Shown here: piece by piece, positions 1,353 through 24,598 of the stretch
Numbering within the stretch: the first letter of the stretch is position 1
Layout of the letters: the number at the start of each line of letters is the position of its first letter
Origin: a virus
Virus genome (UHGV): UHGV-0258679
Strand: one strand, 5' to 3'
Length of the DNA stretch: 24,598 nt
The notes under the pieces: model-generated
Seen by the model: the letters and a program-made list of their open reading frames with translations, nothing else
Databases searched by the model: none
What the model was told of the DNA's origin: nothing
Translations under genes and position numbers: made by a program

Positions 1353-1382
1353 TTAATTCTAATAACAAGAGGAAATTCTACT

Positions 1383-1628
1383 ATGAAAAAGATTATCGCT
1401 GGTATCGTTCTTGCTCTGGGTTTGGTTGGTGCTGTAAATGCCGAACAATATGTACAGGGTGATAGTGTCAAGCGTGCTGCCGTTGCACCTTCTTTAAATC
1501 AACTGTGTACTGAATTAGCACAGGTTGCCGGAGTTGGTGACGATGACGACTTTATTACTGCGTGTGTATGGAGTCATATCGAGGATATTAATAAACGTGA
1601 TGCAAAACTAACTGGAAAGAAATATTAA
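1383..1628 (+). CDS. small secreted protein, 81 aa, with Sec-type signal peptide
   Basis: RBS AAGAGGAAA upstream; N-terminus MKKIIAGIVLALGLVGAVNA|EQ looks like a signal peptidase I site; two Cys and a DDDD patch in the mature part. Confidence 0.55.
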   Translation: MKKIIAGIVLALGLVGAVNAEQYVQGDSVKRAAVAPSLNQLCTELAQVAGVGDDDDFITACVWSHIEDINKRDAKLTGKKY

Positions 1629-1644
1629 TGACTTACTAACCAAT

Positions 1645-1682
1645 GCCCCTATCGTTATAATACGCGGTAGGGGCGTTTTTGT
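1645..1682 (+). terminator. rho-independent terminator (GCCCCTA / loop / TAGGGGC, then GTTTTTGTTT)
   Basis: 7-bp stem and T-run between the stop at 1628 and the recombinase start; could also be part of a recombinase attachment site (dyad symmetry). Confidence 0.5.
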
Positions 1683-1693
1683 TTGGAAATGGT

Positions 1694-3373
1694 ATGAAAA
1701 CTAAACTGTATTCGTATATTCGCTTCTCGTCTATGCGTCAGAATGATGGTTCGAGTTATGAACGACAAATCAGGATGGCGAGAGAGGTTGCGGCAAAGTA
1801 TGACCTTGAACTGGTAAATGATTATCAGGATCTGGGTGTATCTGCGTTTAAGGGTGCTAACTCCAAAACAGGGGCGCTATCTCGTTTCCTTGATGCAATT
1901 GGTAGATCCGTTCCTGTTGGTAGCTGGCTATTCATTGAAAACTTGGACCGCTTATCCCGTGCCGATATTGTCAGTGCGCAGGAGTTATTCCTTTCAATCA
2001 TCCGTAGGGGGATAACCATTGTTACTGGCATGGATAACAAGATCTACTCGCTGGATACTGTTACCGCTAATCCGATGGACCTGATGTTCTCCATCCTTTT
2101 ATTCATCCGTGGTAACGAGGAAAGTCAGACTAAGCGCAATCGTACTAACTCAAGCGCACTGATTAAGATTAAAGCCCATCAAGAAAATCCCCAGAATCCG
2201 GCAGTGGCAATCGAGGAAGTTGGAAAGAATATGTGGTGGACTGATACCACTTCCGGTTATGTGCTGCCTCATCCGGTGTACTTCCCTGTTGTTCAGGAGA
2301 TTGTGGAATTACGGAAGAATGGACGTTCAACCGCCGAAATACTGGATCACCTTAACGAGACATATACACCGCCACCAGCAGTAAGCAACAAGAAGCATTC
2401 AAAATGGTCACGGGCAATGGTTGAAAGGTTGTTCCATACCCGCGCTTTGATTGGTATCAAGGAGGTCTCTGTCGATGGTGTTAACTATGAGTTAAAGGAT
2501 TATTACCCTCGTGTTATTGATGATGCTACGTTCTATCACCTTAAGAAAAATATTGGTGCTAGAGCATGGAACTTTGGAGACAAGGAAGAAGTTAAACCGA
2601 TCCCCCTGCTTAGTGGTATTGGCCTATTGAAATGTGATCATTGCGGTTGCGCTATGGTTAAAGTGAAGGGAACGAACAAACGTTCTGACCAGTATCGTTA
2701 TACATGTGATGCGACCCGTTCACGTAGACTTGATTGCGAGCATCCAAACTGGAGTTTTCGAGGTGATCAATTAGAGAAAGCTGTATTGCAATTGCTGGCT
2801 GATAAAATCTGGATTGCTGAGGATAAGGCTAATCCGGTTCCGGCTTTGAAAGTACAGGTTGATGAGATATCACGCAAGATTGATAACCTGATTGCCCTTT
2901 CTGCTATGACAGGAGCAACGAAGGAGCTAGCCGATCAGATTACTACCCTCAATAGCGAGCGTGAAACACTCTACAATCAGATCAAGATGGCAGAAGAGGA
3001 AATGTATTCTGTGGACTCTCAAGGCTGGGAGAAGCTCGCAGAATTTGATTTAGAAGATGTTTATAACGAGGAACGACTAAAGGTCCGGTTTAAGATTAAG
3101 CAAGCTCTAAAGCGGATCGGGTGTAGCAGGATTGACAGGAATAAAAACTTGTTTGTACTGGAATACATCGATGGAAAGACCCAGAGAGTTGTAATAGAAA
3201 ATTCAAGAGGAACGAGGAAAGGACAAATCTTTGTCGATTTGAAAACTATCAATGATAGGCAGATTCTGGAGAGTAACGGGCTTGTTTTGCATCCATGTTT
3301 AGACATGCTGACAGATAAGAACTGGAAACCAGAAGAGGAAATACCAGGTCCATTACAGGAATTTGGAATTTAA
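1694..3373 (+). CDS. large serine recombinase (integrase-type: resolvase catalytic domain plus recombinase/zinc-ribbon/coiled-coil C-terminal region)
   Basis: N-terminus YSYIRFSSMRQ matches the catalytic YxRVSTxxQ serine motif; LDRLSR motif; downstream Cys cluster CDHCGCAM...YRYTCD...C is zinc-ribbon-like; about 560 aa. The ORF-track start at 1679 is TTG; ATG at 1694 is the more likely start. Confidence 0.85.
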   Translation: MKTKLYSYIRFSSMRQNDGSSYERQIRMAREVAAKYDLELVNDYQDLGVSAFKGANSKTGALSRFLDAIGRSVPVGSWLFIENLDRLSRADIVSAQELFLSIIRRGITIVTGMDNKIYSLDTVTANPMDLMFSILLFIRGNEESQTKRNRTNSSALIKIKAHQENPQNPAVAIEEVGKNMWWTDTTSGYVLPHPVYFPVVQEIVELRKNGRSTAEILDHLNETYTPPPAVSNKKHSKWSRAMVERLFHTRALIGIKEVSVDGVNYELKDYYPRVIDDATFYHLKKNIGARAWNFGDKEEVKPIPLLSGIGLLKCDHCGCAMVKVKGTNKRSDQYRYTCDATRSRRLDCEHPNWSFRGDQLEKAVLQLLADKIWIAEDKANPVPALKVQVDEISRKIDNLIALSAMTGATKELADQITTLNSERETLYNQIKMAEEEMYSVDSQGWEKLAEFDLEDVYNEERLKVRFKIKQALKRIGCSRIDRNKNLFVLEYIDGKTQRVVIENSRGTRKGQIFVDLKTINDRQILESNGLVLHPCLDMLTDKNWKPEEEIPGPLQEFGI

Positions 3374-3411
3374 GCGGCCTAAATCGACGTATAACGAGCT
3401 AAACACTTTAA

Positions 3412-3434
3412 GGGGTACATCTGTACCCCTTTTT
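3412..3434 (+). terminator. rho-independent terminator (GGGGTAC / loop / GTACCCC, then TTTTT), at a convergent junction
   Basis: GC stem with a T-run directly after the recombinase stop; plus- and minus-strand genes converge here. Confidence 0.6.
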
Positions 3435-3446
3435 AATTTAATTGTA

Positions 3447-4445
3447 TTAAAGAGCCTCTAAAGGGCTTAAATCGAGTTCTAAGTCTTCCGGTGTTAAATC
3501 AGCTAACGGTGCATTCATCCACTGCGATAAATCTCGTTCTATGTCTTCATCACTAATGTAGTTGTTCAGATTGATTGCGTTGGTATCATCAAAATACATT
3601 GGCTTAGATGGGTTGGTGTGGATGTATTCATTGATGAATGATTTAACATCTTTCAGCTTGCTAATCGGTAGCGTTTCTGTGAATCCGCTATTCATTACCT
3701 TACGTGGGATTTTCTTGCCCTGAATATTCTTTTTAATCCCCATTTCTAAATCACCAGCTTTCCATCCAATGTTAAACAAATGTGAGCATTCAAAGGTGAT
3801 TTTCTCGCTGGTGTGCTTCTGGTGTTCTCTTACCCGTTGCATCGGATCTTTGCGAGTGGTAATTCCATATTTGAAAAACTTCTCGCCAACACGAATTAGA
3901 TAAAAGTGCATAGGGCGCTGTGCAAACTTGTTTCTGATAACCTGTTTTCTACCATTCTGAATTGATTTAAGTACACCCCTAACCAAAGGGCATGTTAACC
4001 CGCCTTGTCTGCGGTTATTATGTAAATCACCTTTCTTGTGAATCTTTCCGTGGCACTTACAACGAAGAATTAGTTTAGTGTCAACACCCTGATAAGGTTC
4101 AGCCAGACCTAACACATCCCACCCTATCGGCTTGTAGAACTTGCGAGCGTTTTCTAAGTGTTCTTCTTCGGTAAATCTAAACTTCTTCTTAGGCGGTGAT
4201 ACTCTATCTTTGCCAGTAAACTGACCAGTTAGAACATGACTAATACATGGCGTTTTAACCTTTCCGTTAACTTCTATGCAAACTTTGGTGTTCTGGAATG
4301 GTTTCTTTACAGGAAGCACAAAACCACTGTATAACCATCCATGCACTTGACAAACTTTAATGATTCTGGTTTCATATTCGACCGGAGGGGTCGCACGTTT
4401 GCTTTTTGCGGTAAATTCGATATCCTTTGCTAAAGTAGTATTCAT
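3447..4445 (-). CDS. Zn-finger plus GIY-YIG-like (T5orf172-like) nuclease-domain protein, 332 aa; candidate homing endonuclease or DNA-binding regulator
   Basis: N-terminal half has Cys/His pairs (CQVH, C...C..H, CKCHGKIH); C-terminal half has HFYLIRVGEKFFKYGITTRKDPMQRVREHQ, resembling the GIY...YIG...R...E core; acidic C-terminal tail. Assigned from motif resemblance only. Confidence 0.45.
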   Translation of the reverse strand: MNTTLAKDIEFTAKSKRATPPVEYETRIIKVCQVHGWLYSGFVLPVKKPFQNTKVCIEVNGKVKTPCISHVLTGQFTGKDRVSPPKKKFRFTEEEHLENARKFYKPIGWDVLGLAEPYQGVDTKLILRCKCHGKIHKKGDLHNNRRQGGLTCPLVRGVLKSIQNGRKQVIRNKFAQRPMHFYLIRVGEKFFKYGITTRKDPMQRVREHQKHTSEKITFECSHLFNIGWKAGDLEMGIKKNIQGKKIPRKVMNSGFTETLPISKLKDVKSFINEYIHTNPSKPMYFDDTNAINLNNYISDEDIERDLSQWMNAPLADLTPEDLELDLSPLEAL

Positions 4446-4480
4446 AGTAGTGAATCCTCAATAAAATAATATTCACTACT
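4446..4480 (-). promoter_or_regulatory. perfect 10-bp inverted repeat (AGTAGTGAAT, 15-nt spacer, ATTCACTACT) abutting the start codon of the 332-aa gene
   Basis: Seen directly in the sequence; the spacer contains the probable SD (GAGG); a TATAAAT -10-like hexamer lies just upstream on the minus strand. Confidence 0.4.
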
Positions 4481-4491
4481 ATTTATAAGAA

Positions 4492-4893
4492 TTAATTATT
4501 GTAGTTTTGGAAACCAGTAAGATCGCAAAATGAATCAGTGTCATGTGCTGGGGAACGATGTTCTGCTTCGTCAGAGAAAATGCTTGCTACCGGAGATTCC
4601 ACTTTAATTTCCGGTGCTTCTTCAACATCTGACTTAACTTCTTCGATCACTGGTTCAACTGCTGGAGATTCTTCTTTTGTTTCTTCAATGACGATCTCAG
4701 GTTCTTTCATTGCTTCAACCAGAGACGGATCAACTTCGTCGAATACCACTTTATCATCTGCGGTATATTTGTCTATAATGAAAAAATGGTCAGAAATATA
4801 GCTAACGTCGCCAGCATATTCTAACAAAAAAGCGCCCACCAGAGGCGCTTTTGTTTTATCCATTCCACCGTGATTTTTTTGATCTGGAATCAA
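4492..4893 (-). CDS. acidic hypothetical protein (Glu/Asp/Pro-rich C-terminal half); true start uncertain
   Basis: ORF from the track; its first 10 codons overlap the peptidase gene and a terminator hairpin (4830-4858) lies inside its 5' end, so the real product may start later (for example at MKEPEIV). Confidence 0.3.
   Translation of the reverse strand: MIPDQKNHGGMDKTKAPLVGAFLLEYAGDVSYISDHFFIIDKYTADDKVVFDEVDPSLVEAMKEPEIVIEETKEESPAVEPVIEEVKSDVEEAPEIKVESPVASIFSDEAEHRSPAHDTDSFCDLTGFQNYNN
4830..4858 (-). terminator. rho-independent terminator on the minus strand (AGCGCC / loop / GGCGCT, then TTTTTT)
   Basis: GC stem plus a 6-T run immediately after the M15 peptidase stop codon. Confidence 0.6.
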
Positions 4894-5209
4894 TATGCGT
4901 AAAGGTTTTATATTTTCCTAAGCCGTATTGAGTAGGATATTTCCCATCAAGATAAGCATGAACAATATCAGGCGAGACACCCTTGATAACAATGTCAGCC
5001 GCACGGCCTCGAACGTGATAGCTATTGGCTGCCCCGCCTACATTCTTGTTATGAGTCGGGCAACGGTTGCCACTGTTAATAATCACTGGTTTACCGAAGT
5101 GCTCTCGTACATCCTCAAGAATCACCAGTAATTCAGCGTCGATTGTATCATAATCACATTTTCCGCATTTACATTTAAATTCCTTGCGAGAAAAATGCTT
5201 ACTTAACAT
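4856..5209 (-). CDS. peptidase M15 family (M15A, YcbK/DUF882-like) zinc peptidase; candidate endolysin
   Basis: Motifs SGNRCPTHNKNVGGAANSYHVRGRAADI and FTHIDSR match the conserved M15 zinc-ligand signature; RBS AGGGGGT; small size (117 aa) typical of phage M15 lysins. Confidence 0.75.
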   Translation of the reverse strand: MLSKHFSRKEFKCKCGKCDYDTIDAELLVILEDVREHFGKPVIINSGNRCPTHNKNVGGAANSYHVRGRAADIVIKGVSPDIVHAYLDGKYPTQYGLGKYKTFTHIDSRSKKSRWNG

Positions 5210-5218
5210 ATTACCCCC

Positions 5219-5566
5219 TTAGATCATTTCGAAGATATAACCAATAAAGCGCATACCCTTGATATAATAAGGAGCAGTGCCTACACACACCGCGCGTGCA
5301 TCGCCCAGACAGTTAAAGCTATAAGGATTAACCACATCAACTTCTTGCCCTACACGAAAACGATACTTAGGACGTTTAGCCAATGTAGCGACACAAAACA
5401 CGGTCCCTTTTTCATGATCGCGGATACATTCTTTATATTGTTTATGTTTAACTCTCTTCGCCTCAAAATCATGAGTCATTGATTCTGGGCTAATGCCATT
5501 AATAAAAATACCGGAAAGCTGATCGACCGGATAAGTAGGAAATTCAGTAAAAATATTTTTAGCCAT
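5219..5566 (-). CDS. hypothetical protein, 115 aa, translationally coupled to the M15 peptidase
   Basis: RBS GGGGGT; its stop overlaps the RBS of the peptidase gene. Confidence 0.5.
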   Translation of the reverse strand: MAKNIFTEFPTYPVDQLSGIFINGISPESMTHDFEAKRVKHKQYKECIRDHEKGTVFCVATLAKRPKYRFRVGQEVDVVNPYSFNCLGDARAVCVGTAPYYIKGMRFIGYIFEMI

Positions 5567-5604
5567 GTTATACCCCCATAAGATTCTATGAGGGTATTTA
5601 TTGA

Positions 5605-6288
5605 TTAAACGTATTTCATGCGCGATTTAATGTGCTTATTGATGTTTTCAAGCATCATTGCTTCGTTGCTTTCCCACGATCCTAGCGTCGAATAACGAGT
5701 AGAAATTTTATCCGATTTAACGGCAACAATTCGCTTGCTCTGTTTCTGTATGCGTTTCTCTAAGCGACGTTTTGCCACCGCCGATCCATTCCTAGCGCGT
5801 TTGGTTCGGGATTTCTTAGGCTTGTACTTCTTCATGATAAAAGTCCCTTCCTTGTTCTCTACCTTGATGAAGTTGCCGTTTTCGAGGTTACGCATCATCT
5901 TACCGCCTTTGATGGCCTTAATGTTCCCGTGGGCGTCTAAGACCTTGCCGTTAGCGATTGGAACTAGCTTATTGATTTTGCCACCATCGAAATAGTGTTT
6001 CAGATAGTCATCCTGACTGCCGATCTTCTTGTCCTTATCCCTTGCGCCCTTGATGAAGATTTGGTGTCTCGTCCCTGATCGGTTCTTGTAGTTGGTATTA
6101 CCTACCGCTTGCTGAGTCCAGCGAGTAGGTCTATCAACATTCTTGTTAATCTTCTTCTGGAGTGCTCTGGAAGCAAAGATCGCCCCTTCCCCTAGTGCCC
6201 TTTCGAATGTATTGGTTGCCTTTTCAGACCATTGCCTCAACGCTTTCTTAGTCCTTAGAGCGTTTCGTTTATTGGTACTGGTTGCCAT
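5605..6288 (-). CDS. highly basic (Lys/Arg-rich) hypothetical protein, 227 aa
   Basis: RBS AGGGGGC; strongly basic composition throughout; no motif recognised. Confidence 0.5.
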   Translation of the reverse strand: MATSTNKRNALRTKKALRQWSEKATNTFERALGEGAIFASRALQKKINKNVDRPTRWTQQAVGNTNYKNRSGTRHQIFIKGARDKDKKIGSQDDYLKHYFDGGKINKLVPIANGKVLDAHGNIKAIKGGKMMRNLENGNFIKVENKEGTFIMKKYKPKKSRTKRARNGSAVAKRRLEKRIQKQSKRIVAVKSDKISTRYSTLGSWESNEAMMLENINKHIKSRMKYV

Positions 6289-6298
6289 GTTAGCCCCC

Positions 6299-6460
6299 TA
6301 ATAACGAAAAGACCCCCGCCAGTGTCCTTAGCAATTGTTCATCCACGGTCATAGCCGGGAGTTCAAGCCCAAAGGACGTTAGCAGAGGTCTAATAGCTAC
6401 GTTATAAGTGAGGGCGACAATCAAGAGATAACCAAAATATTTCTTAAGTTTATTCTTCAT
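6299..6460 (-). CDS. small membrane protein, 53 aa (MKNKLKKYFGYLLIVALTYNVAI...)
   Basis: Hand-translated, not in the ORF track; RBS AAGGGG 7 nt upstream; one clear hydrophobic helix; no Cys, so not a lipoprotein. Confidence 0.4.
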
Positions 6461-6478
6461 ATATTCACCCCTTTATTA

Positions 6479-6757
6479 TTATTTTTGTTTGAGTATGTCG
6501 AGAACTTGGTCAAATTTGGCGTCCATCGCAACCACTTTCTTCTCTATACCGTGTAGTGTTTGTTCCATTTGGTAAACACGTTCAGCAATCTGAGTATGGT
6601 TATTCTGCATCGTCTCAAACTTCTGGTTTAACAATGCGTCGCTGGATTCCAATTTCGACAATCTATTTTCTGTGGCTAATTGATTTCGGTGAAGTCTCCA
6701 AAGCCCACCACAAATTAAGGCGATAACACCGATACCGCCATATATAATTTCAGTCAT
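6479..6757 (-). CDS. signal-anchored coiled-coil membrane protein, about 92 aa (i-spanin-like or superinfection-exclusion-like architecture)
   Basis: Start moved to the internal ATG (MTEIIYGG...) preceded by GGGGGCGTA; N-terminal TM segment IIYGGIGVIALICGGLW then a predicted coiled coil. Confidence 0.45.
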   Translation of the reverse strand: MTEIIYGGIGVIALICGGLWRLHRNQLATENRLSKLESSDALLNQKFETMQNNHTQIAERVYQMEQTLHGIEKKVVAMDAKFDQVLDILKQK

Positions 6758-6799
6758 TACGCCCCCGATATTTTTATAATTTAATGGCAAAATTATTTA

Positions 6800-6842
6800 G
6801 ATAAAAATAATCCCGCCTAACTCAAAAGAATTAAGCGGGATT
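6800..6842 (-). terminator. rho-independent terminator after the tail tip gene (8-bp stem AATCCCGC/GCGGGATT, T-rich tail)
   Basis: Inverted repeat seen directly in the sequence, followed on the minus strand by ATTTTTAT. Confidence 0.5.
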
Positions 6843-6860
6843 AATTATAAAAATTAAATT

Positions 6861-9800
6861 TTAAGAAACAGAAATACCAGTAGCGGCTTTCTTAGTTACC
6901 ATTACCGTTAGATCGCTGATATATGCATTTGGGTTATAGTCGTTAACGCCCTTACAGTAAACTTCAAAAGTCATTGTTACTGCCCCGTGTCCGGCTGGCA
7001 TGTCAATAACTCCACTGTACATACAGCCAGAAGTTGCAGTGCGATCATATAGAACACCACCATTTTTCTTAACGATTAGTCGGCAAGTATCCCAAAGATC
7101 GCCACTACTGTTGCCACGACGTTCAGACCCGTTATGATGAATCGCTGGAATCACTATTTGGCGATCGAATGGATGATCATCTTCGACCCTTACAGTGATT
7201 GCACCATCAGGCCAGTTTGGTTGGCGATGTGGGAAACTCCTACCAACCACTTTCACGAAGTCACCACGCACCTGATTAGCATCAAGCATACCCAAAATGC
7301 GGCAACTTGAATTAATCGTTACGTTGTTCATTTCGCCGGAATCAGCCACCAAATGACCACGAATATTAGCGTGTCTAAAATGACAAGTGCCATCTTTGCC
7401 AATATACCATCCATCGTTACCATTCCAGTTATAAGACTGGATATAGTTACCGATTTTAGCATTATCGATAGAGCCATCAATAATATGTCCCGTTCCGATC
7501 TGTGCGTGTTGGATGTGAGCGCCGTTAATCTGGGCTGTGCCGATCTTAGCCGTGGTAATAGCCGCATCACTAATCTGGGCTGTGCCAATTGCAGCATTAC
7601 GAATCATCGCATTATCGAGATAAACTTTGTTATCTTCGATGCCAAACGGACAAACTTCTGATCCGTCTTGTGGAGCTACCGCGATTTTATCAGCCGTAAA
7701 GATGATTCTCGTCGGTTCTGCCGGATCATTGGTTGCGCTCATATGAATACCGGCCACGCGACCATCTGCATTAACCGCCAGATTATATTTGCTGTTAATG
7801 GTTCCCTTCAAAGCATCGATTTTTACATCTGCTTCCTGATTCACACCAGCAATCTTGCCATCCATTTCTACCCGAACTTGATCAATCTTACTTGCGCTTG
7901 CTGCCTCACTGGTAGCAATTGCTTGTTTCAGGGTAGTAGCAGATGCGCTAACTTCTTTGGTGATATCGCCTTTCAGTTCAGCTTTAACCTGATCAATCTT
8001 AGTTGCGCTGGCTTGCTCACTGGTAGCAATCAGACTCTTGAGAGTATCGGCTGAGGCTTGGACCGTCTGCCCTGTCTCGGTAGTAATCTGTTTATGCATT
8101 GCATCAATCTTAGCATCGGCATTAGCGCCAGCTTGAGCAATAGCATCCGCGATGGTTTCATCTAAGCGATCTTGTAAACCAATCAGGTCTTCCAGTGCTT
8201 CTTTGTCCTGATCGTCCCAGCTAATGGTAGATTTCATTTGCATGAAATACGGTTCAGACCAAACAGCATCATCCATACCGAAAATATCATAGTGAGCACC
8301 ACGGATATAATAATCACCGTCAGCCAAATCAAAGGAAGTATGACTAACGCTATTGGTAGTCACTGCCCTTGCATCGGAGAAAGTATTATCGGTTGCATAC
8401 TGGATGATTGACCCTGCATAGTCATGTTCTACGTCATCCGCCCAGCTAACAAACGCAGTATTAAAGCCACCACGCGCACTAAAACCTTTCATCGGCTTAT
8501 GTTGTGGGTTGATAGCCACTAAACGCGCTGGGGCGCTCTCTGAGTTGTTATAGCCCTTAACGGATACTTCTACCGTCAATTCACGGGAAAGGCCGTTAAA
8601 CTGGTTCATATCAAGCGTATAAGTCCATGATTCAGGATCGCGGGTACGGTACTGAATAGACTTACCAGCCTTGTTAGTTACCTTGATAATGTATGCTTCA
8701 AACAGGTCACTAAACTTGTTAGCTTCACCGTTGATCATCACATCTAATTGTTGCTGGTTATCCCATTCGATAATCAGATCGTTGCCTTCGAAAGTACCAG
8801 GTGAACTACCCTGATTTTTGATGCGGATCGCTGGCGTAGGCAGTTCATAGGTAACTTCTGGATTCTGGTTAACCAATTCCACCCATTCGGAACGAGCAAT
8901 AATACCGAAAGCACAAACGCGGTAATCGTAGGAACGATCTTTAGCCAGTGCATTGATATTGAAAATTTGCTGTGAAGTCTGTCCCAGCTTAATCCAGTTA
9001 GGTGATCCACTCACACGGTAATCAATCTGGAAACCGTAGCGGTTGAAATCTTCCGGTGCATCCCATGTCAAAGTTACGTTTTTACCGTGGATTGTCTCAC
9101 CAGTTGCCTTAATTCTGAAATTAGTCGGTTTCTGTACTGTCATTGAATCCGGTAAACCAGTAGGTCTATTGTCTGGATTCGCCGCATAGTTCAGGTCAGT
9201 ATAAACCTGAGAATTATATTCTGTGGCGGTGATAGTCATCATCCCAGCAATACCAGAATCAATAGAGCGATCAATTGCAGTAATACGCCAAAGTGAATTA
9301 TTCAGTTTTAATTCATCATAGGTTACGCTAATAACATCCCAAACTTCGGCAGTGAATGCGTCAGTAGTCATAAAGCTGATAACCTGAGTGATACGAGATT
9401 TATTTCGTTCTACACTCGCTAGTTTATCAATCTGGGCTTTAGACTTAACAAAACGATATTCAATATCTTTAGCGATAATTCGACCATCTTGACGAATAGT
9501 AGCATCGTTTTCAGCATCAGCCGGATAACGCAGCATTTGCTCTGAATAGTCGATTGATGGTTCTTGATACATCGCGTTAATGGTATTGAAATAACCGTTA
9601 GTGCCACCTGTTTTCAGTGATACTTTTCCCATCATGATATTGTCTTCATTGAAGGTATGCTTAACAATATCAGGAGCATCCAGTTTCAGGGTAATTCTTC
9701 CAAAGGATTCGAACATTACCCCGCCGAAAGTCTGCATAAGACTGGTCAAGTTCTCTTTAAAGCTGGCGTTCGGATCACATGCACCGTTGGAATGTAGGTC

Positions 9801-16925: not shown

Positions 16926-19900
16926 TTACCCTAATTTAGCTTCAATTGCAGCAAGACGTTCACGAAGAAGTTTATTTTCTTCGCTCATTTCTTGGACCGC
17001 TTTAATTAAAAGCGCGTTCACTGCGGAGTTTGAAATTGTTAAAATTTCTTCTGGGTTATCAAAACCACCAATTTTTGCGGTTTTAACAGCTTCCGGTAAT
17101 ACCTCTTGTAAATCCTGTGCGATAATACCAATCTCATGACCTATAACTTCTCGGTCATTAAGAGATTTAACTTTATCGTAGGTTTTAACTTTGAGTTTAT
17201 TTACCTTATCCACCGCATTTTCTTCGTAATCTTCAACATTAATTTTCAGACGACGATCGGAACGAATATAAACATCGTTAAAGTTTCCGTTACCAGTGGC
17301 ATGAAATTCTCCACTTGCATGGAATTGATAATCAGCACCCTGAACATGAAGAACCGCTGCCGCAGTATTATTACTATCACCGGGACAATGAACGTCCATA
17401 GCAGCGATGTAGTTACGCCCCCAATCAACCGCTTTCCAAATAGCATGAGCACTATCAACGCTTTGTTGACAGTCAACCAACAAACCAGCAGGTCGGTCTC
17501 TCCATGCAACATATGCACCACCAGAAACCTCACCACGGATAAGTCCTTGATCTGCGGCATAAGGAACACGCCCTTCCAGTTTAATCATCGCGCCCTGGAA
17601 GTGATGTGTAAATTGTCCACCGTGGTTATTGCGAATATGTAAAATACCCTCATCTGTAGCCCAGATAACAGCCTTTTCCGTATCGCTATCATCTCTAAAC
17701 CAGATATGGCGTGCACCAGTTGAGTTTTTGACGGTTATTCCGTTAGGTCCATGCACGGTCAAAGCACCAGATACATCAAATAAAACGGTGTTGTCTGTTC
17801 TACGTTCAGTATAGAAGTGATAACCTTTGGAATCGCCAACTTCCATTACTGCCGCGCGACCAACTTCTGAATTTCCCCAATTATTAATAGAGAATCGTTC
17901 AGAGCTATTATTCATCTGATTTAGGTATAATGTACCATCAGTGAATGTTTCGCCAAAGAAACGAGTTTTAACGCCGTTAGTACCCCCCACGCGTTCAAAT
18001 TCAGCCAAGAAACCTTTGGAATCTCGCATACTCAAAACGTTATTGCGTCCTGTATTACTGTTACCCCAATGGATTAATTCAATATAGTCCATTGACTGAC
18101 GAGACCCTGATCTAAACACCATATTATCTTCGATGCGGGTGCTACCATCAATTCCCAGATGTAAACAGCGTGCGGTAGCTGTGCCACCTAGATCCAATCC
18201 ACCTTCGGCAAAATCATAGCTGAATGGTCTACGGCTATTCCACCCACCGAAAGAATCTTTTAAATCGGTAGTAAGAATATGGAAGCTAGAACCATCATTT
18301 CTAAAAATTAAGCCATAGTTGCCACCTTTAACAGCCAAACGAGCATTTTCAGATAATGCAACTTCGCTATTCATTACAATTTTCTGGCCTTTACCGCCAG
18401 TAATATGTAATTCACCGTTTTCGATCAAGTTTATAGAGTTTTGACCGTTATCGTTCCACCAAATAAAATCTTTGGTCGTCAAATCACCAAAACCAAACCA
18501 ACCATTACGAACATCTTGACCAGTGCGATAATCCATGAAATTAAAATGGCTTGCTTCGTTTGGTCCTCGACGAATATCAATACCAGCATTAGAACCGGAA
18601 CCTAAGCCACCATCGATGGTCAATCTACGAATATGTAACCCGGTTGCAGCCGAAAGCAATAATTGTTGGTTTACATCGTCATATCCAGTAGCAAGACGAT
18701 AATTTTGATCATCAACAGTTTCATGCCAGATAGTGGCAGGAGCAGAACTACGGAAGCGACGCAACATCTTTTTGCTGTTAGTTTGTTGTTCGTTCAAATG
18801 CTCAATGTCATATTGGCCTTGATGGTTTCCAGCAAAGTTTAACGTCCCACGGTTGCTAAAGTTATTGAACGATGAAATGTTAAGAGCATCAAAAATTTCA
18901 TCTGCAACAGGTTTTTCACCACCCAGATATTCAGGAGTATCCAACAGGTTTAAAGAAACACCACCGGAAGAAACTTGATATTCTGCTAAAACAAATCCTG
19001 TATGTGCACCGTAGTAAGCGTAAAGATCATAATTGTCGCCATCGGTTGGAATAGCGCAAAAATGTTGTTCATAATGCCAAATAGTATAATACGCATTGAA
19101 TACAACACCTTTCGGGCTATTGTTGCCGCATCGAATCACCAATTCGATAATATTGGCTTGTCCATTCTGTCCGACGTTATAACCGTTGCCACCAACTAAG
19201 CGGATCTTAGCCGTGCGACCGTGTTGTTGTGGCATTGTCAAAGTGCCTAGTTTAAACCAACCGCCCTCGATACCAAAATTAAGCGTCTTCTGGAACAGGC
19301 GGTCAATTTCTGCTTTCGAATATGCGCCAATTTCAGCCGGAGTAGGTTTATCGCCTTCATGATACATGCGGTGAGAATATGCCAAATGTCCCAATTCATC
19401 ATAGCCGTATGTTCTTACAGTAGCATGTGGATTAGACCCATAAGTGAACTCGAAGCCACGAGCATGATTAACACCAGATGGATGGGGAACATGCAAGATC
19501 ATAGCAATATGACCCGCCAGGTCATTCATGCGAAATGCACCAAAGTAATCAAGATTAAGAGCACTCGGATCATCAAAAGGGTTTGCGGTCTTAGACAGCA
19601 AATAACCATCAGTATAAGTGTTTACGTGTTTTTTGATGTACTTGCCATCACTTGATCCATCGGCTGCATCAATACGGCTTTCTAAGCGTGCCAATTCAGA
19701 ATCAGTGTAAGACTTGTTATTGTCAACTTTGCTATGAATTGCTGTATTTTTGGCTTCAACATCACGGGTTAATGCTGCGACGTTATCCGCTGCCTCTTGC
19801 TTATTGGCTGCAATCACACCAGTAAGGTTATTGTAGGTGTCAGTTAACTGATTTTCCGCATAGGCGTGATTTGCTGCGATAGTGCGGTCAGTTTCTGCCT

Positions 19901-20456
19901 TAATCAAATCAACTTTGTCATTGATTGCTTTGTGATTGCTTACGATGGTTGCATCGGTACGGGATTTAATATCATCAACTTTTTTATTGATGCGGGTGTC
20001 CAGTTCCTGAGTTGCTACAGCAGCCGCATTTTTATTAGCGTTGATGGTATCCGACAATTCAGCTTTAACACCAGCAAGATCGGAAGCAGCTTTATTTTTA
20101 TTGGCCTCGATTGTCGCGTCGGTTTCGCGTTTAATTACATCAACTTTATTGTTAATTTCTGCGTGATTTGCTGAGATGGTTGCATCAGTAGTTTGTTTAA
20201 TTTCATCTACTTTAGCGTGAATATTGCGGTCATTTACTGCAATTGTGCTATCTAGTTCTTGTTTGTTAGCATCAACTTTAGATTCTAGTGCCGCGTGAGT
20301 TTCAGGAGAAACAGAGATTTGAACTACTTCATGATCTCGGTCTTTGGTAAAAATAACATGGTCTTTAAGGTTGATTGCTACCTCACCGACCTGTAATTGT
20401 TCCGGCGTTGGCTTTTTGCCAGCTACATTAGTTCGCTTAAATTGGATTGATTGCAT
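16926..20456 (-). CDS. long tail fibre, 1176 aa, with N-terminal repeat shaft and C-terminal intramolecular chaperone (peptidase S74-like) domain
   Basis: About seven tandem 22-aa repeats of the form KVDxIKxxTDATIxAN; C-terminus ...SDRRLKINVEDY...GIIAQDLQEVLPEAV... matches the endosialidase/T5 L-shaped-fibre chaperone signature; RBS GAGGTGA. Confidence 0.8.
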   Translation of the reverse strand: MQSIQFKRTNVAGKKPTPEQLQVGEVAINLKDHVIFTKDRDHEVVQISVSPETHAALESKVDANKQELDSTIAVNDRNIHAKVDEIKQTTDATISANHAEINNKVDVIKRETDATIEANKNKAASDLAGVKAELSDTINANKNAAAVATQELDTRINKKVDDIKSRTDATIVSNHKAINDKVDLIKAETDRTIAANHAYAENQLTDTYNNLTGVIAANKQEAADNVAALTRDVEAKNTAIHSKVDNNKSYTDSELARLESRIDAADGSSDGKYIKKHVNTYTDGYLLSKTANPFDDPSALNLDYFGAFRMNDLAGHIAMILHVPHPSGVNHARGFEFTYGSNPHATVRTYGYDELGHLAYSHRMYHEGDKPTPAEIGAYSKAEIDRLFQKTLNFGIEGGWFKLGTLTMPQQHGRTAKIRLVGGNGYNVGQNGQANIIELVIRCGNNSPKGVVFNAYYTIWHYEQHFCAIPTDGDNYDLYAYYGAHTGFVLAEYQVSSGGVSLNLLDTPEYLGGEKPVADEIFDALNISSFNNFSNRGTLNFAGNHQGQYDIEHLNEQQTNSKKMLRRFRSSAPATIWHETVDDQNYRLATGYDDVNQQLLLSAATGLHIRRLTIDGGLGSGSNAGIDIRRGPNEASHFNFMDYRTGQDVRNGWFGFGDLTTKDFIWWNDNGQNSINLIENGELHITGGKGQKIVMNSEVALSENARLAVKGGNYGLIFRNDGSSFHILTTDLKDSFGGWNSRRPFSYDFAEGGLDLGGTATARCLHLGIDGSTRIEDNMVFRSGSRQSMDYIELIHWGNSNTGRNNVLSMRDSKGFLAEFERVGGTNGVKTRFFGETFTDGTLYLNQMNNSSERFSINNWGNSEVGRAAVMEVGDSKGYHFYTERRTDNTVLFDVSGALTVHGPNGITVKNSTGARHIWFRDDSDTEKAVIWATDEGILHIRNNHGGQFTHHFQGAMIKLEGRVPYAADQGLIRGEVSGGAYVAWRDRPAGLLVDCQQSVDSAHAIWKAVDWGRNYIAAMDVHCPGDSNNTAAAVLHVQGADYQFHASGEFHATGNGNFNDVYIRSDRRLKINVEDYEENAVDKVNKLKVKTYDKVKSLNDREVIGHEIGIIAQDLQEVLPEAVKTAKIGGFDNPEEILTISNSAVNALLIKAVQEMSEENKLLRERLAAIEAKLG

Positions 20457-21796: not shown

Positions 21797-22069
21797 TGTA
21801 CCCCCTGCCAGAGTAATAAAGCAATCAGAAGTATTATCACCATTGCGCTTAACGTATTGAACTTTGAAACGCTGATTTTCTACAATGACAATATCACCCT
21901 GCTTTAAGTCTCCCTCACGACAAAATAGAAATTCTGTCTCTGTCATTACCCCTTGTTCGTCGGTAGTAGTAATTTCATGATAAGCACGAATTGATTTACC
22001 ACCTTCCACCGAAAATACAGGAGCACTCTTAAACATTCTTGATAATTGTGATTCTGATAATTTGAACAT
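21779..22069 (-). CDS. head-tail connector-type small protein (by position), 96 aa
   Basis: First ORF downstream of the capsid terminators. Confidence 0.35.
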   Translation of the reverse strand: MFKLSESQLSRMFKSAPVFSVEGGKSIRAYHEITTTDEQGVMTETEFLFCREGDLKQGDIVIVENQRFKVQYVKRNGDNTSDCFITLAGGTHARYR

Positions 22070-22102
22070 AGTTACCCCCTTTATGGAGTATTTACATACA
22101 AA

Positions 22103-22165
22103 AAAGCCCCACCGTTAGGCAGGGCTAATTATTATTTTGCTTTCGGTGGACGTCCCACCTTTTTA
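22103..22165. terminator. bidirectional terminator region after the capsid gene (minus: AGCCC / loop / GGGCT then TTTTTT; plus: GGTGG / ACGTC / CCACC then TTTTT)
   Basis: Two stem-loops with T-runs on opposite strands in the capsid to next-gene intergenic region; a further perfect 8-bp hairpin CTTCCCCC/GGGGGAAG lies at 22230-22250. Confidence 0.55.
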
Positions 22166-22266
22166 GCTGTGGCTTTCGCCGTAACCTCTTGAACTTCTTC
22201 TTCCTGAGATGGAATCAGATTTTCTTCCCCCAAATCGGGGGAAGGTTCAGAAGGTTCTACGCTAGT

Positions 22267-24273
22267 TCATTCAGCGGAGATATGAAGAACTTTCAGAGCT
22301 TCCGGCTGAACTACGGTGAAGTCCAGGTCTACCCAGATACGCGGAACGATAGCAGACTGTGCACGGTAGGTAGTGTCATCCATATCCAGTTCCAGACCAC
22401 CCCATTCGCCGATCATGATACCGGAGAAGTCACCCAGAACGATGTGATCTGCCGGAATAACACCAGAAGTAACTACATCGTAACCAGCCAGTTTACCGTT
22501 TTCGATGATATAACCGGAAACGCCGTTATCTTTCAGGGTAGATTCCAGTTCAGCAGCAGTCGCACCGCTCATCGCAAACTTGATCGCCTGAGCAGGAACG
22601 CCAGCGTCGGTCAGTGCTGCAATTTCTTTCAGGAAGTCTTTGTAAGAGAAAGCGGCTTTCTTAGCAACGCGACCACCATCTACCAGTTGTTTAACCAGAC
22701 CAGCCGGACCACGAGTATTGTCTTTGTCAGACAGAATCAGTTGTTCCAGTTTGATGCGAACAGCTTTGTTAATATGATCAGTGATCAGGGTAGCAATATT
22801 CGGAACAGTTTTCAGAGACTGACGGCTGATCGGGTTGCCACCAGCAAAAGTTTTCGGAGCCATTTTCACGTTTGCAAATTCCGCCTTCGACTCGGGGGCA
22901 CTTCCATTTTCGTCCACAAAACCAAAGGCATCGACGCTGGAAGCAGTCATTTTCGGAACAGCGATCGGGCTATTCAGACCAGACAGAACAGTCACACCCA
23001 GACGACCCAAAACAGACTGCGGAAGCAGCATTTCTACATAGGATTCGGTCAGCAGTTTTTCGTCAGTTACAGCGGTCAGAGTAGCTTTGGTGTTACCTTC
23101 GGAAGCAGCACGCAGAGCAGCAGCCGGAACGAATACAGAGCCACCGCGAGCAGCACGACCACGCTGCATTGCAGCACCAGCAGCCATAGCGGAATATTCA
23201 GCTTCGTTAGCACCCAGAGCAGCACCATCTACCAGAGAGCGAATTACGTTGTTCAGGTCAAAAGTTTTTTCCATTTTAGAGTCCTTAATTTGTTCGTTGT
23301 TACGTTGAGCAGTAGCGATTTTATTTAGTGCCTTAGTGCGGAATGCTTCCGGCGTAATTTCTTTATTTGCCAATGCTCGTTTAAATTCTTCATCGTCTTC
23401 GTTAATATTTAACTCGCGTGCAATTTCGCGAATTTCTAATTCGTCTTCTTCGGAACGTTCAGCCACTTCCTCGGTTTTTTCTTCTTCAACCGGAGCGGCT
23501 TCACGTTCTTCTTTTACTTCTTCTTCCCGAACAGTTGAACTATCATCATCAACACTTTCAGGATGTTTAGCGTCTTTTCCGTCTTCGAGATTTTCATCTT
23601 CTTTATTCTCTTCAACTTGGCGCTCTTGAGTTTTTTCAACTTCCGGTTCTTTATTTTCTTCTACCGGAGTTTCTTCAACCTGAGCGGGTTCTTGTTCTTC
23701 TTTGATTTCTTCGATTTGTTCTTTAGTCATATCGCGTTTAGCCTCCAAATTAACTGTGATAGTATTTAGAGAGCGATTTAAACCGACAGAATCATCGGCA
23801 GGGACCGTCACAAATGAAATTTCAAAAGGTTCCCACTTAGTAACAATCAATTGTCCTTTGGCGTAATCGATGCGATATTCTTTAATGTCATAGCCGACAG
23901 AAATTTTTTCCATCGTACCTTCAATGACTTTATTACGAATATCATTAGACAAAGTGCCATGCTTGGAGAATTTAACCAGAGCACGGCCTACGTTATCCGC
24001 ATCGATTCGAGCGTTACAAACGACACCAATGTGATTATCGAAAATATGATTGAACAGCAACGGAGCGTTATTATTCAGACGAGACAGATCAACCGCTTCC
24101 GGTGTATGTACCAGAATTTCATCTAATACCACCATTTCTTGATTTTGCTCATCCCAGAATCGGCGCTGATAAGGCTGTTCACTGGAGAAAGCAATTTCAA
24201 ATTCGTATTGATCATTCTGCCCTTCGTTAATAACTCCACCGTAACCGTTAATATCGCGGCGAAATTTAAGCAT
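22267..24273 (-). CDS. fused prohead protease (HK97/U35-S78-like) - acidic scaffold-like linker - HK97-fold major capsid protein, 668 aa
   Basis: N-terminal about 170 aa resembles caudoviral prohead serine proteases (including ...EISFVTVPAD...); the middle is an E/K-rich low-complexity region; the C-terminal about 300 aa is capsid-like; RBS AAAGGTGG; strong terminators downstream. Confidence 0.8.
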   Translation of the reverse strand: MLKFRRDINGYGGVINEGQNDQYEFEIAFSSEQPYQRRFWDEQNQEMVVLDEILVHTPEAVDLSRLNNNAPLLFNHIFDNHIGVVCNARIDADNVGRALVKFSKHGTLSNDIRNKVIEGTMEKISVGYDIKEYRIDYAKGQLIVTKWEPFEISFVTVPADDSVGLNRSLNTITVNLEAKRDMTKEQIEEIKEEQEPAQVEETPVEENKEPEVEKTQERQVEENKEDENLEDGKDAKHPESVDDDSSTVREEEVKEEREAAPVEEEKTEEVAERSEEDELEIREIARELNINEDDEEFKRALANKEITPEAFRTKALNKIATAQRNNEQIKDSKMEKTFDLNNVIRSLVDGAALGANEAEYSAMAAGAAMQRGRAARGGSVFVPAAALRAASEGNTKATLTAVTDEKLLTESYVEMLLPQSVLGRLGVTVLSGLNSPIAVPKMTASSVDAFGFVDENGSAPESKAEFANVKMAPKTFAGGNPISRQSLKTVPNIATLITDHINKAVRIKLEQLILSDKDNTRGPAGLVKQLVDGGRVAKKAAFSYKDFLKEIAALTDAGVPAQAIKFAMSGATAAELESTLKDNGVSGYIIENGKLAGYDVVTSGVIPADHIVLGDFSGIMIGEWGGLELDMDDTTYRAQSAIVPRIWVDLDFTVVQPEALKVLHISAE

Positions 24274-24318
24274 TTAACCACCTTTAATTAATTGGGGGCA
24301 TTGCGCCCCCGTTGGTTA

Positions 24319-24462
24319 TTAGGGATCGGCTGGGGAATTTTTTTCTTCACCCTCGCCATTAACGATAATATTTAGTGCGCTCTTTTCGGCTTGAATCTCT
24401 GAGAATACTTTTTCAGGATCATCACCACGTTCTAATATAACGGCAGTACGTGATTTAAGAAC
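24319..24462 (-). pseudogene. 3' fragment (47 codons, no start codon) of an upstream phage ORF, truncated at about 24462
   Basis: Frame open from 24462 to the stop at 24319-24321 (...GEGEEKNSPADP*) with no Met and an in-frame stop at 24463-24465; the interruption coincides with the start of the IS-like sequence. Confidence 0.4.
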
Positions 24463-24598
24463 CTATCCCAAAAGGAATTGTCAGATCGAAAATAATGGCA
24501 ATTTTTGAGGGCGAAGTATGACGGGCAACAAGTGGCAGATCAGCGATGAACTCTGGGAGAAAATGGCTCCACTTCTCCCGGAACATAAAACCCACCAT
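24463..24598 (+). mobile_element. left end of a putative insertion sequence (IS4/IS5-superfamily-like), continuing beyond the window
   Basis: Transposase-like ORF start plus the abrupt truncation of the upstream phage ORF; terminal inverted repeat could not be verified because the other end is outside the window. Confidence 0.45.
24519..24598 (+). CDS. transposase N-terminus (partial): MTGNKWQISDELWEKMAPLLPEHKTHH...
   Basis: RBS GAGGG 8 nt upstream; SDELWEKMAPLLP matches the conserved 'DEQWxxIEPLLP' N-terminal motif of IS4/IS5-type (DUF4096) transposases, from memory. Confidence 0.5.

Follow-up and report, generated by a model that had tools for sequence, protein, structure and literature searches.

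The right edge of the window, a 24,598-nt stretch of viral DNA analysed at its full length (UHGV virus genome UHGV-0258679), joins the last codons of a phage portal gene to one end of an insertion sequence (IS). We consider it very probable, at about 93%, that an 869-bp IS5-family element transposed into the portal gene of a roughly 35-kb Escherichia coli prophage, and that the contig ends within this element. The insertion would have occurred between portal codons 458 and 459, duplicating the target TTA (TAA on the plus strand of the window) and placing the transposase gene antisense to the phage late operon. The window would then represent the promoter-distal side, with a 46-codon portal remnant, a single copy of the duplicated target and 140 nt from the left end of the IS. 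A short-read de Bruijn assembler would fail to traverse the element and terminate the contig k-1 bases inside it; the remaining portal sequence and the terminase gene would be found on a separate contig, which terminates in the opposite arm of the IS. Such insertions of an IS into a structural gene of a prophage are textbook events. It is mildly notable for the rarity of the element in E. coli and for the presence of the same disrupted prophage in several assemblies.

A portal gene remnant abuts an IS end

A minus-strand reading frame ends at a TAA stop at positions 24319-24321, with a translation ending in ...LKSRTAVILERGDDPEKVFSEIQAEKSALNIIVNGEGEEKNSPADP (also given as ...VLKSRTAVILERGDDPEKVFSEIQAEKSALNIIVNGEGEEKNSPADP) before the stop. 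The frame contains no ATG, GTG or TTG, and its upstream closure is an in-frame TAG at 24463-24465 on the minus strand. Both features, a start-less frame ending at 24319 and an in-frame stop at 24463, had been described in the original prediction and are read directly in the sequence. The segment 24319-24458 (minus strand) comprises the TAA stop and the codons for residues 458-503 of a 503-residue lambda-family portal protein. Of its 46 residues, 45-46 agree with the C-terminal end of intact portals of 503 aa, with codon L458 completed, by chance, by the first IS base at 24459.

DNA alignment places the discontinuity precisely. The window is the same as the intact prophages L004-L007, L037 and L041 up to 24458/24459, and unrelated to them past that point. 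In a megablast search with window 24000-24598, the matches in 40+ complete E. coli genomes all end at query base 460, corresponding to window position 24459, and none of the complete E. coli genomes spans the window junction. The true break is located at 24458/24459, rather than at the stop at 24463, which lies 5 nt into the inverted repeat of the IS.

The sequence beyond the break (24459-24598, plus strand) constitutes the left 140 nt of the 869-bp element, cut by the end of the contig and window. It is identical at 140/140 positions to bases 3001-3140 of L042, a locus from E. coli O10:H32 NMBU-W12E19 (NZ_CP042892) that contains a full copy; comparison of the edge segment with IS sequences thus bears out the proposed identity. 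Chance is excluded as the origin of the features at the right edge, since the remnant matches intact portals almost completely and the adjoining bases match the full IS copy without a single difference. The left terminal inverted repeat, GAACCTATCCCAAAAGGA, occupies 24459-24476 (plus strand), and 17 of its 18 bases match the right-end repeat of the full copy, GAATCTATCCCAAAAGGA, which is also present on the far-side contigs L049 and L050 discussed below. A Shine-Dalgarno-like GAGGG at 24507-24511 (plus strand) is located 6 nt before the ATG of the transposase gene at 24518, in agreement with the good ribosome-binding site noted previously. The first 27 codons of this gene, OrfA (MTGNKWQISDELWEKMAPLLPEHKTHH), extend over 24518-24598 on the plus strand in a frame that remains open to the end of the window.

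It could be proposed that no IS is involved, the plus-strand frame being a normal phage gene and the upstream frame continuing in another phase. We found nothing in favour of this reading and give it next to no likelihood. All three minus-strand frames are closed beyond the junction, the two other than the remnant frame being likewise closed or unrelated. The sequence is absent at this position from related prophages, and it occurs in unrelated contexts (fdhD/yiiG in E. coli; plasmids of Pantoea, Proteus and Vibrio), each time bounded by inverted repeats.

The inserted element encodes a DDE transposase

The full copy in NMBU-W12E19 (FVP48_RS14855) is 869 bp long, covers L042 3001-3869 and has TTA at either end. 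Its OrfA (132 aa) begins at nt 60 of the element, and an A7 run at nt 413-419 is predicted to fuse OrfA to OrfB by a -1 shift, yielding a 268-aa protein. This layout was read in the NMBU-W12E19 copy and agrees with its RefSeq label, 'IS5 family transposase, programmed frameshift'; the element is therefore not new to RefSeq, where it already stands as an IS5 family transposase. Residues 1-27 of the window OrfA are identical to the N-terminus shared by OrfA and the frameshift fusion of this full copy.

On the IS5 family model NF033580 (cutoff 110), the fusion reaches 282.9 bits; its scores are 70.6 bits on DDE_Tnp_1 (PF01609) and 91.7 bits on DUF4096 (PF13340, 'putative transposase of IS4/5 family'). 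These scores support the start of an IS4/IS5-type transposase that had been recognised from the N-terminus. Judged by its sequence, the element is an IS5-family IS with a DDE transposase, terminal inverted repeats and a 3-bp target-site duplication. The inverted repeats and the DDE domain of the full copy contradict the scenario that had been named as refuting an insertion, in which the frame is a normal phage gene with neither terminal repeats nor a transposase domain.

Both junctions and the empty site define a simple insertion

The empty site is present in L041 and L037 as GATAACGGAC-TTA-AATCACG (also written GGACTTAAATC). The near junction in the window reads, in reverse complement, GGTTC-TTA-AATCACG. 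On the far side, L049 and L050 both contain GGAC-TTA-GAATC, that is, GGACTTA followed directly by GAATCTATCCC; in a longer reading, ...ATTGATAACGGACTTA runs up to the junction and GAATCTATCCCAAAAGGATTTT... continues beyond it. Aligned on the target, the empty state is GGAC-TTA-AATC, the occupied state is GGAC-TTA-IS upstream and IS-TTA-AATC downstream, and the TTA that is single in the empty site stands on both sides of the IS in the window lineage. The copy of the duplication retained in the window (TAA, or TTA in portal orientation) occupies 24456-24458, as defined by the empty site and both junctions.

The far-side contigs were recovered through a predicted protein. Combining the intact portal allele, the right arm of the IS and the 3-bp duplication predicts portal residues 1-458 followed by 22 residues, RIYPKRILFQTMMLQAKCSIAS, and a stop. 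The N-terminal part was taken from L037, whose head module does not differ from that of the window in the 3.5 kb that follow the junction; the empty-site allele L041 is in turn the same as L037 for 320 nt before the junction. An exact-sequence look-up with six candidate chimeras returned one match, the combination of the L037 N-terminal part with the E. coli-type IS arm (P0122, 480 aa). The protein is encoded on JAATCL010000095.1 of GCA_030001495.1 (13.9 kb) and on k141_141145 of the ENA assembly ERZ27287851 (4.4 kb). A missing partner contig can thus be recovered by deriving the chimeric protein expected at an IS junction and querying for an identical sequence.

The same two assemblies carry the window junction on other contigs, L040 with 0 mismatches over 12,268 nt and L044 with 1 mismatch over 14,069 nt. 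The far-side contigs belong to these two sister assemblies, rather than to the source of the window itself, which appears to be a third assembly given that the window has 24,598 nt and the L044 contig 20,071 nt. The right IS arm on them is identical to the reference copy at 140/140 and 76/76 positions, and the upstream prophage arm is 99.7% identical to the intact L037 over 9.1 kb. The search for the other IS end, for a target-site duplication and for the N-terminal part of the interrupted frame beyond the IS was therefore successful on all three counts, with portal residues 1-458 and the 3-bp duplication found in two assemblies of the same lineage.

IS5-family elements are known to cause deletions of adjacent DNA, and the window by itself displays only one junction. 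An IS-mediated deletion or rearrangement, in which the N-terminal part of the portal gene, the terminase and the early genes were deleted or moved and a prophage fragment was left behind, might therefore be considered. We find it very improbable. The two sister assemblies contain the arm missing from the window. Its junction with the right part of the IS falls precisely at the neighbouring base and shows the duplicated TTA, and it retains its near-identity to the intact relative over 9.1 kb. As both junctions, the duplicated TTA and the empty site line up, the event reads as a simple transposition with TTA/TAA duplication and no adjacent deletion.

A chimeric join of a phage contig to an unrelated IS read, with no real insertion, might be suspected from the position of the junction at a contig end in a metagenome-style assembly (k141_* name). 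Such an artefact is scarcely credible here: the identical junction occurs in the independent GCA_030001495.1, whose contig ends 76 nt into the IS, as well as in the ENA assembly, and the reciprocal junction carries the correct target-site duplication, which chimeras do not make.

The empty-site allele L041, a Logan contig from ERR10789559, is 100% identical to the occupied lineage over 2830 nt. The existence of this otherwise identical allele suggests that the insertion is recent. At their starts, L041 (25 nt) and L050 (140 nt) do not match the otherwise identical prophage sequence, which probably reflects graph-branch or contig-end effects, or mosaic boundaries.

Pattern searches in other sequence collections gave no further examples. 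A first far-junction DNA pattern, built on the Pantoea-type right end (GGYTC), found nothing in genome_contigs or viral_contigs, and the near-junction pattern found nothing in viral_contigs. A corrected far-junction pattern (GRYTC), which would match the real junction, was likewise blank in genome_contigs, metagenome_contigs and viral_contigs, most likely because the window lineage is absent from those collections (genome_contigs contains one genome per species). When a chimeric sequence of 68 aa was searched against proteins, the single match was a partial portal of no relevance (P0121).

The contig ends at an assembly break inside the element

Two contigs, both named k141_*, extend into the IS for 140 nt, exactly as far as the window does. 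L044 begins at exactly the base with which the window ends. In the GCA_030001495.1 draft, both contig ends lie 76 nt into the IS. A length of 140 nt equals k-1 for k=141, k141 being a MEGAHIT-style contig name, and 76 nt would fit k=77; when the shared flanking A is counted, the overlaps equal k rather than k-1. Since de Bruijn assemblers behave in this way at a repeat, the right edge of the window is a contig end produced by an assembly break. The original prediction had offered an assembly junction as an alternative to a defective prophage; the edge is such a break as well, k-1 bases into a repeat.

The break could have a different cause if occupied and empty alleles coexisted in one sample and formed an assembly bubble, with the insertion real yet polymorphic and the IS not multi-copy. 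The empty-site allele L041, 100% identical over 2.8 kb, points in this direction to the extent that it indicates a recent insertion and a site that is polymorphic between samples, but it comes from another run. In the NCBI assembly, the two sides are broken at the same point, contig ends k-1 bases inside each IS arm are the pattern of a repeat present elsewhere in the genome, and the sole complete genome with the IS carries three copies. We thus regard a bubble as improbable and favour a break at a multi-copy IS.

For the annotation of the window, these results mean that the right edge is an assembly break at a repeat and no biological end, and that the 46-codon start-less frame should be annotated as a fragment of a portal pseudogene. 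With the 869-bp IS as a bridge, the two contigs can be joined.

The interrupted gene belongs to the late operon of an E. coli prophage

The intact portal allele of L037 scores 215.3 bits on PF05136 (cutoff 32.9) and 211.5 bits on TIGR01539 (cutoff 172.7). These matches identify the interrupted gene as a lambda-family phage portal, and the closest database relatives of the 503-aa protein are E. coli phage portal proteins by name. The original prediction, which had placed the IS in the gene upstream of the capsid gene on the portal/terminase side, can accordingly be narrowed to the portal. The 46-aa remnant was itself identified via prophage relatives in IMG/VR; tblastn against phages gave marginal matches only, with E values of 0.1 or worse.

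Directly downstream of the portal in the late operon lies a 668-aa fusion of a prohead protease and a major capsid protein (22267-24273, minus strand), with matches to PF04586 and PF05065. The S78 prohead protease covers residues ~40-162 and the HK97-type capsid domain residues ~410-664; they are connected by a linker of ~150 residues that is extremely acidic and E/K-rich. In intact relatives and in contigs encoding an identical capsid protein, the gene order is a GpA-type terminase (635 aa), a 164-aa protein, the 503-aa portal and the capsid protein. The 164-aa protein differs in nearly every relative. Like lambda gpB-type portals (PF05136, TIGR01539), the intact allele exceeds both curated cutoffs and follows a GpA-type terminase and a small protein; in contrast to those portals, the gene in the window keeps its last 46 codons only. 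The arrangement further differs from the C/Nu3/D/E order of lambda, since the head gene that follows the portal encodes an S78 protease fused to an HK97 capsid protein.

A GC-rich hairpin, GGGGGCGCAATGCCCCC, lies at window 24293-24311 (both strands), within the 45 nt that separate the portal stop from the capsid start. It is kept in all aligned relatives (the equivalents in L004-L007), with the length of the G-run varying by one base, and a pattern scan finds it terminator-like on the plus strand only. The hairpin could serve in RNA stability or attenuation within the operon.

The prophage otherwise looks complete: the window encodes a serine recombinase, an endolysin and tail proteins, and the partner contig supplies the early genes and the terminase. 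At the window end opposite the IS, a 564-aa frame with a TTG start (1679-3373, plus strand) matches PHROG integrase and DNA-invertase families, identifying a large serine recombinase that is presumably the prophage integrase. A 1176-aa tail-fibre-like protein (16926-20456, minus strand) contains Gp34_trimer and C-terminal Peptidase_S74 (intramolecular chaperone) domains. The tail-fibre region is variable, encoding 1176 aa in the window and L037 and 1234 aa in L038.

This type of prophage is common in E. coli. IMG/VR contains 33 prophage relatives with a capsid protein 88-96% identical to that of the window. A megablast of window 22000-24598 against the phage collection gave no match, and the closest cultured-phage record for the head module is Escherichia phage DCP80, with 44% protein identity to the capsid protein. 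The DCP80 record (PQ671644.1, L003) is a 141-kb genome classed as Straboviridae/Tevenvirinae. Its first 8 kb (1377-7432) contain a large terminase, a portal-sized frame and a capsid homologue, ordered as in the window prophage. This head module is odd for a T4-like phage, and the record may be misclassified or chimeric.

The insertion probably renders the prophage defective

Through the insertion, the portal loses its last 45 residues and gains 22 encoded by the IS. When the intact portal is aligned with homologues of 62-97% identity, invariant positions are densely clustered in residues 457-483 (GLKSRTAVILERGDDPEKVFSEIxAEK), the most conserved motif of the C-terminus, and the TIGR01539 match (residues 62-484) includes this segment. 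Portal proteins are indispensable both in the assembly of procapsids and in the packaging of DNA. We infer that a portal of 458 native and 22 IS-encoded residues would be non-functional, although a protein altered at its C-terminus could in principle keep some activity. Given the loss of the conserved C-terminal segment and the essential role of portals, the prophage is probably defective, that is, unable to form infectious particles.

A second effect may concern transcription. Late transcripts would have to run through the 869-bp IS, in antisense, before they reach the capsid and tail genes, and transcription into these genes may suffer polarity. When the junction and the IS were scanned for promoters and terminators, no signal relevant to polarity exceeded the level of shuffled sequence, and no decisive terminator emerged.

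IS insertions that inactivate morphogenesis genes are known to give rise to cryptic or defective prophages in Enterobacteriaceae. The present case resembles these in that the IS has hit an essential late gene, the prophage is intact elsewhere and strains differ in whether the site is occupied. The mechanism is the same; the defect here is deduced from sequence. It adds one more case of IS-driven prophage decay, and in prophage calling such an element should be scored as probably defective despite its near-complete gene content.

The element is rare in E. coli and related to Pantoea plasmid copies

Among 5,426 complete E. coli genomes, a 100% match to the IS was found in NMBU-W12E19 only, which holds the three copies mentioned above. 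Relatives at 80-90% identity are present in another 285 of the 5,426 genomes. When window 24456-24598 was compared with plasmid IS5-family transposase loci, Pantoea loci showed 94-98% identity, and those of Proteus, Providencia, Vibrio, Klebsiella and E. coli plasmids ~85-88%, some of them labelled ISPrst3 family. The IS arm of the window is 97.9% identical to one Pantoea agglomerans plasmid copy. The full NMBU-W12E19 copy is 98.8% and 95.5% identical to the copies on Pantoea agglomerans plasmids (NZ_CP143403, NZ_CP031652). The element is rare in E. coli and looks Pantoea-derived.

Both 140-nt arms of the window lineage are 100% identical to the unnamed IS of NMBU-W12E19 and share its inverted repeats and 3-bp T(A/T)A duplication; the arms were observed, and from these identical ends we infer the interior of the window-lineage copy (IS nt 141-729, 589 nt). 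The insertion site, here a prophage portal gene, is the one difference from the NMBU-W12E19/Pantoea element. Copies with at least 95% identity stand in unrelated genomic contexts, beside fdhD/yiiG in E. coli, on two Pantoea plasmids and in the window prophage, which marks the IS as mobile.

The portal::IS strain was seen in at least three assemblies, gut or metagenome samples included. One might speculate that an IS associated with plants or the environment recently entered E. coli, and that a strain whose prophage was locked in place by portal inactivation then spread, as a selectively retained domestication of the prophage rather than a neutral accident. The restriction of the element to 1 of the 5,426 complete genomes and its nearest relatives on Pantoea agglomerans plasmids are compatible with such a transfer, but we hold this scenario as a whole to be rather doubtful.

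The only named relative seen is ISPrst3 (RefSeq 'IS5-like element ISPrst3 family transposase'). It shares the length class of 854-869 bp, the inverted-repeat core CTATCCCAAAAGG, the two-ORF layout and T(A/T)A flanks. Copies of the ISPrst3 type are 82-84% identical at the nucleotide level to the full window-type IS, and under the usual ISfinder convention ISPrst3 is a different IS, not an isoform. ISPrst3 is common beside catA3 on resistance plasmids of Proteus, Providencia, Vibrio and E. coli, and the literature search on ISPrst3 found mentions in resistance-plasmid maps only.

The flanks of seven related copies are all TAA or TTA (T(A/T)A in 7/7). They match, as a 3-bp duplication, in four of the seven, namely the E. 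coli copy, two from Pantoea and EC05. The remaining three have unlike flanks, TAA and TTA, and are all located on plasmids, at least two of them beside catA3. The 3-bp duplication rule for this IS is drawn from the four clean copies together with the window-lineage copy. A 9-nt right flank is identical in the E. coli and Vibrio copies; the likeness ends there and was taken as coincidence in AT-rich DNA.

ISPrst3-type relatives adjoin the chloramphenicol-resistance gene catA3 (CatIII) on Vibrio pVb2134 (L002) and on the E. coli AR_0369 plasmid (L046), and the copy examined on each of these plasmids has the unlike TAA and TTA flanks. On pVb2134, IS5-family copies are found on either side of catA3, which suggests that the gene resides there in a composite transposon.
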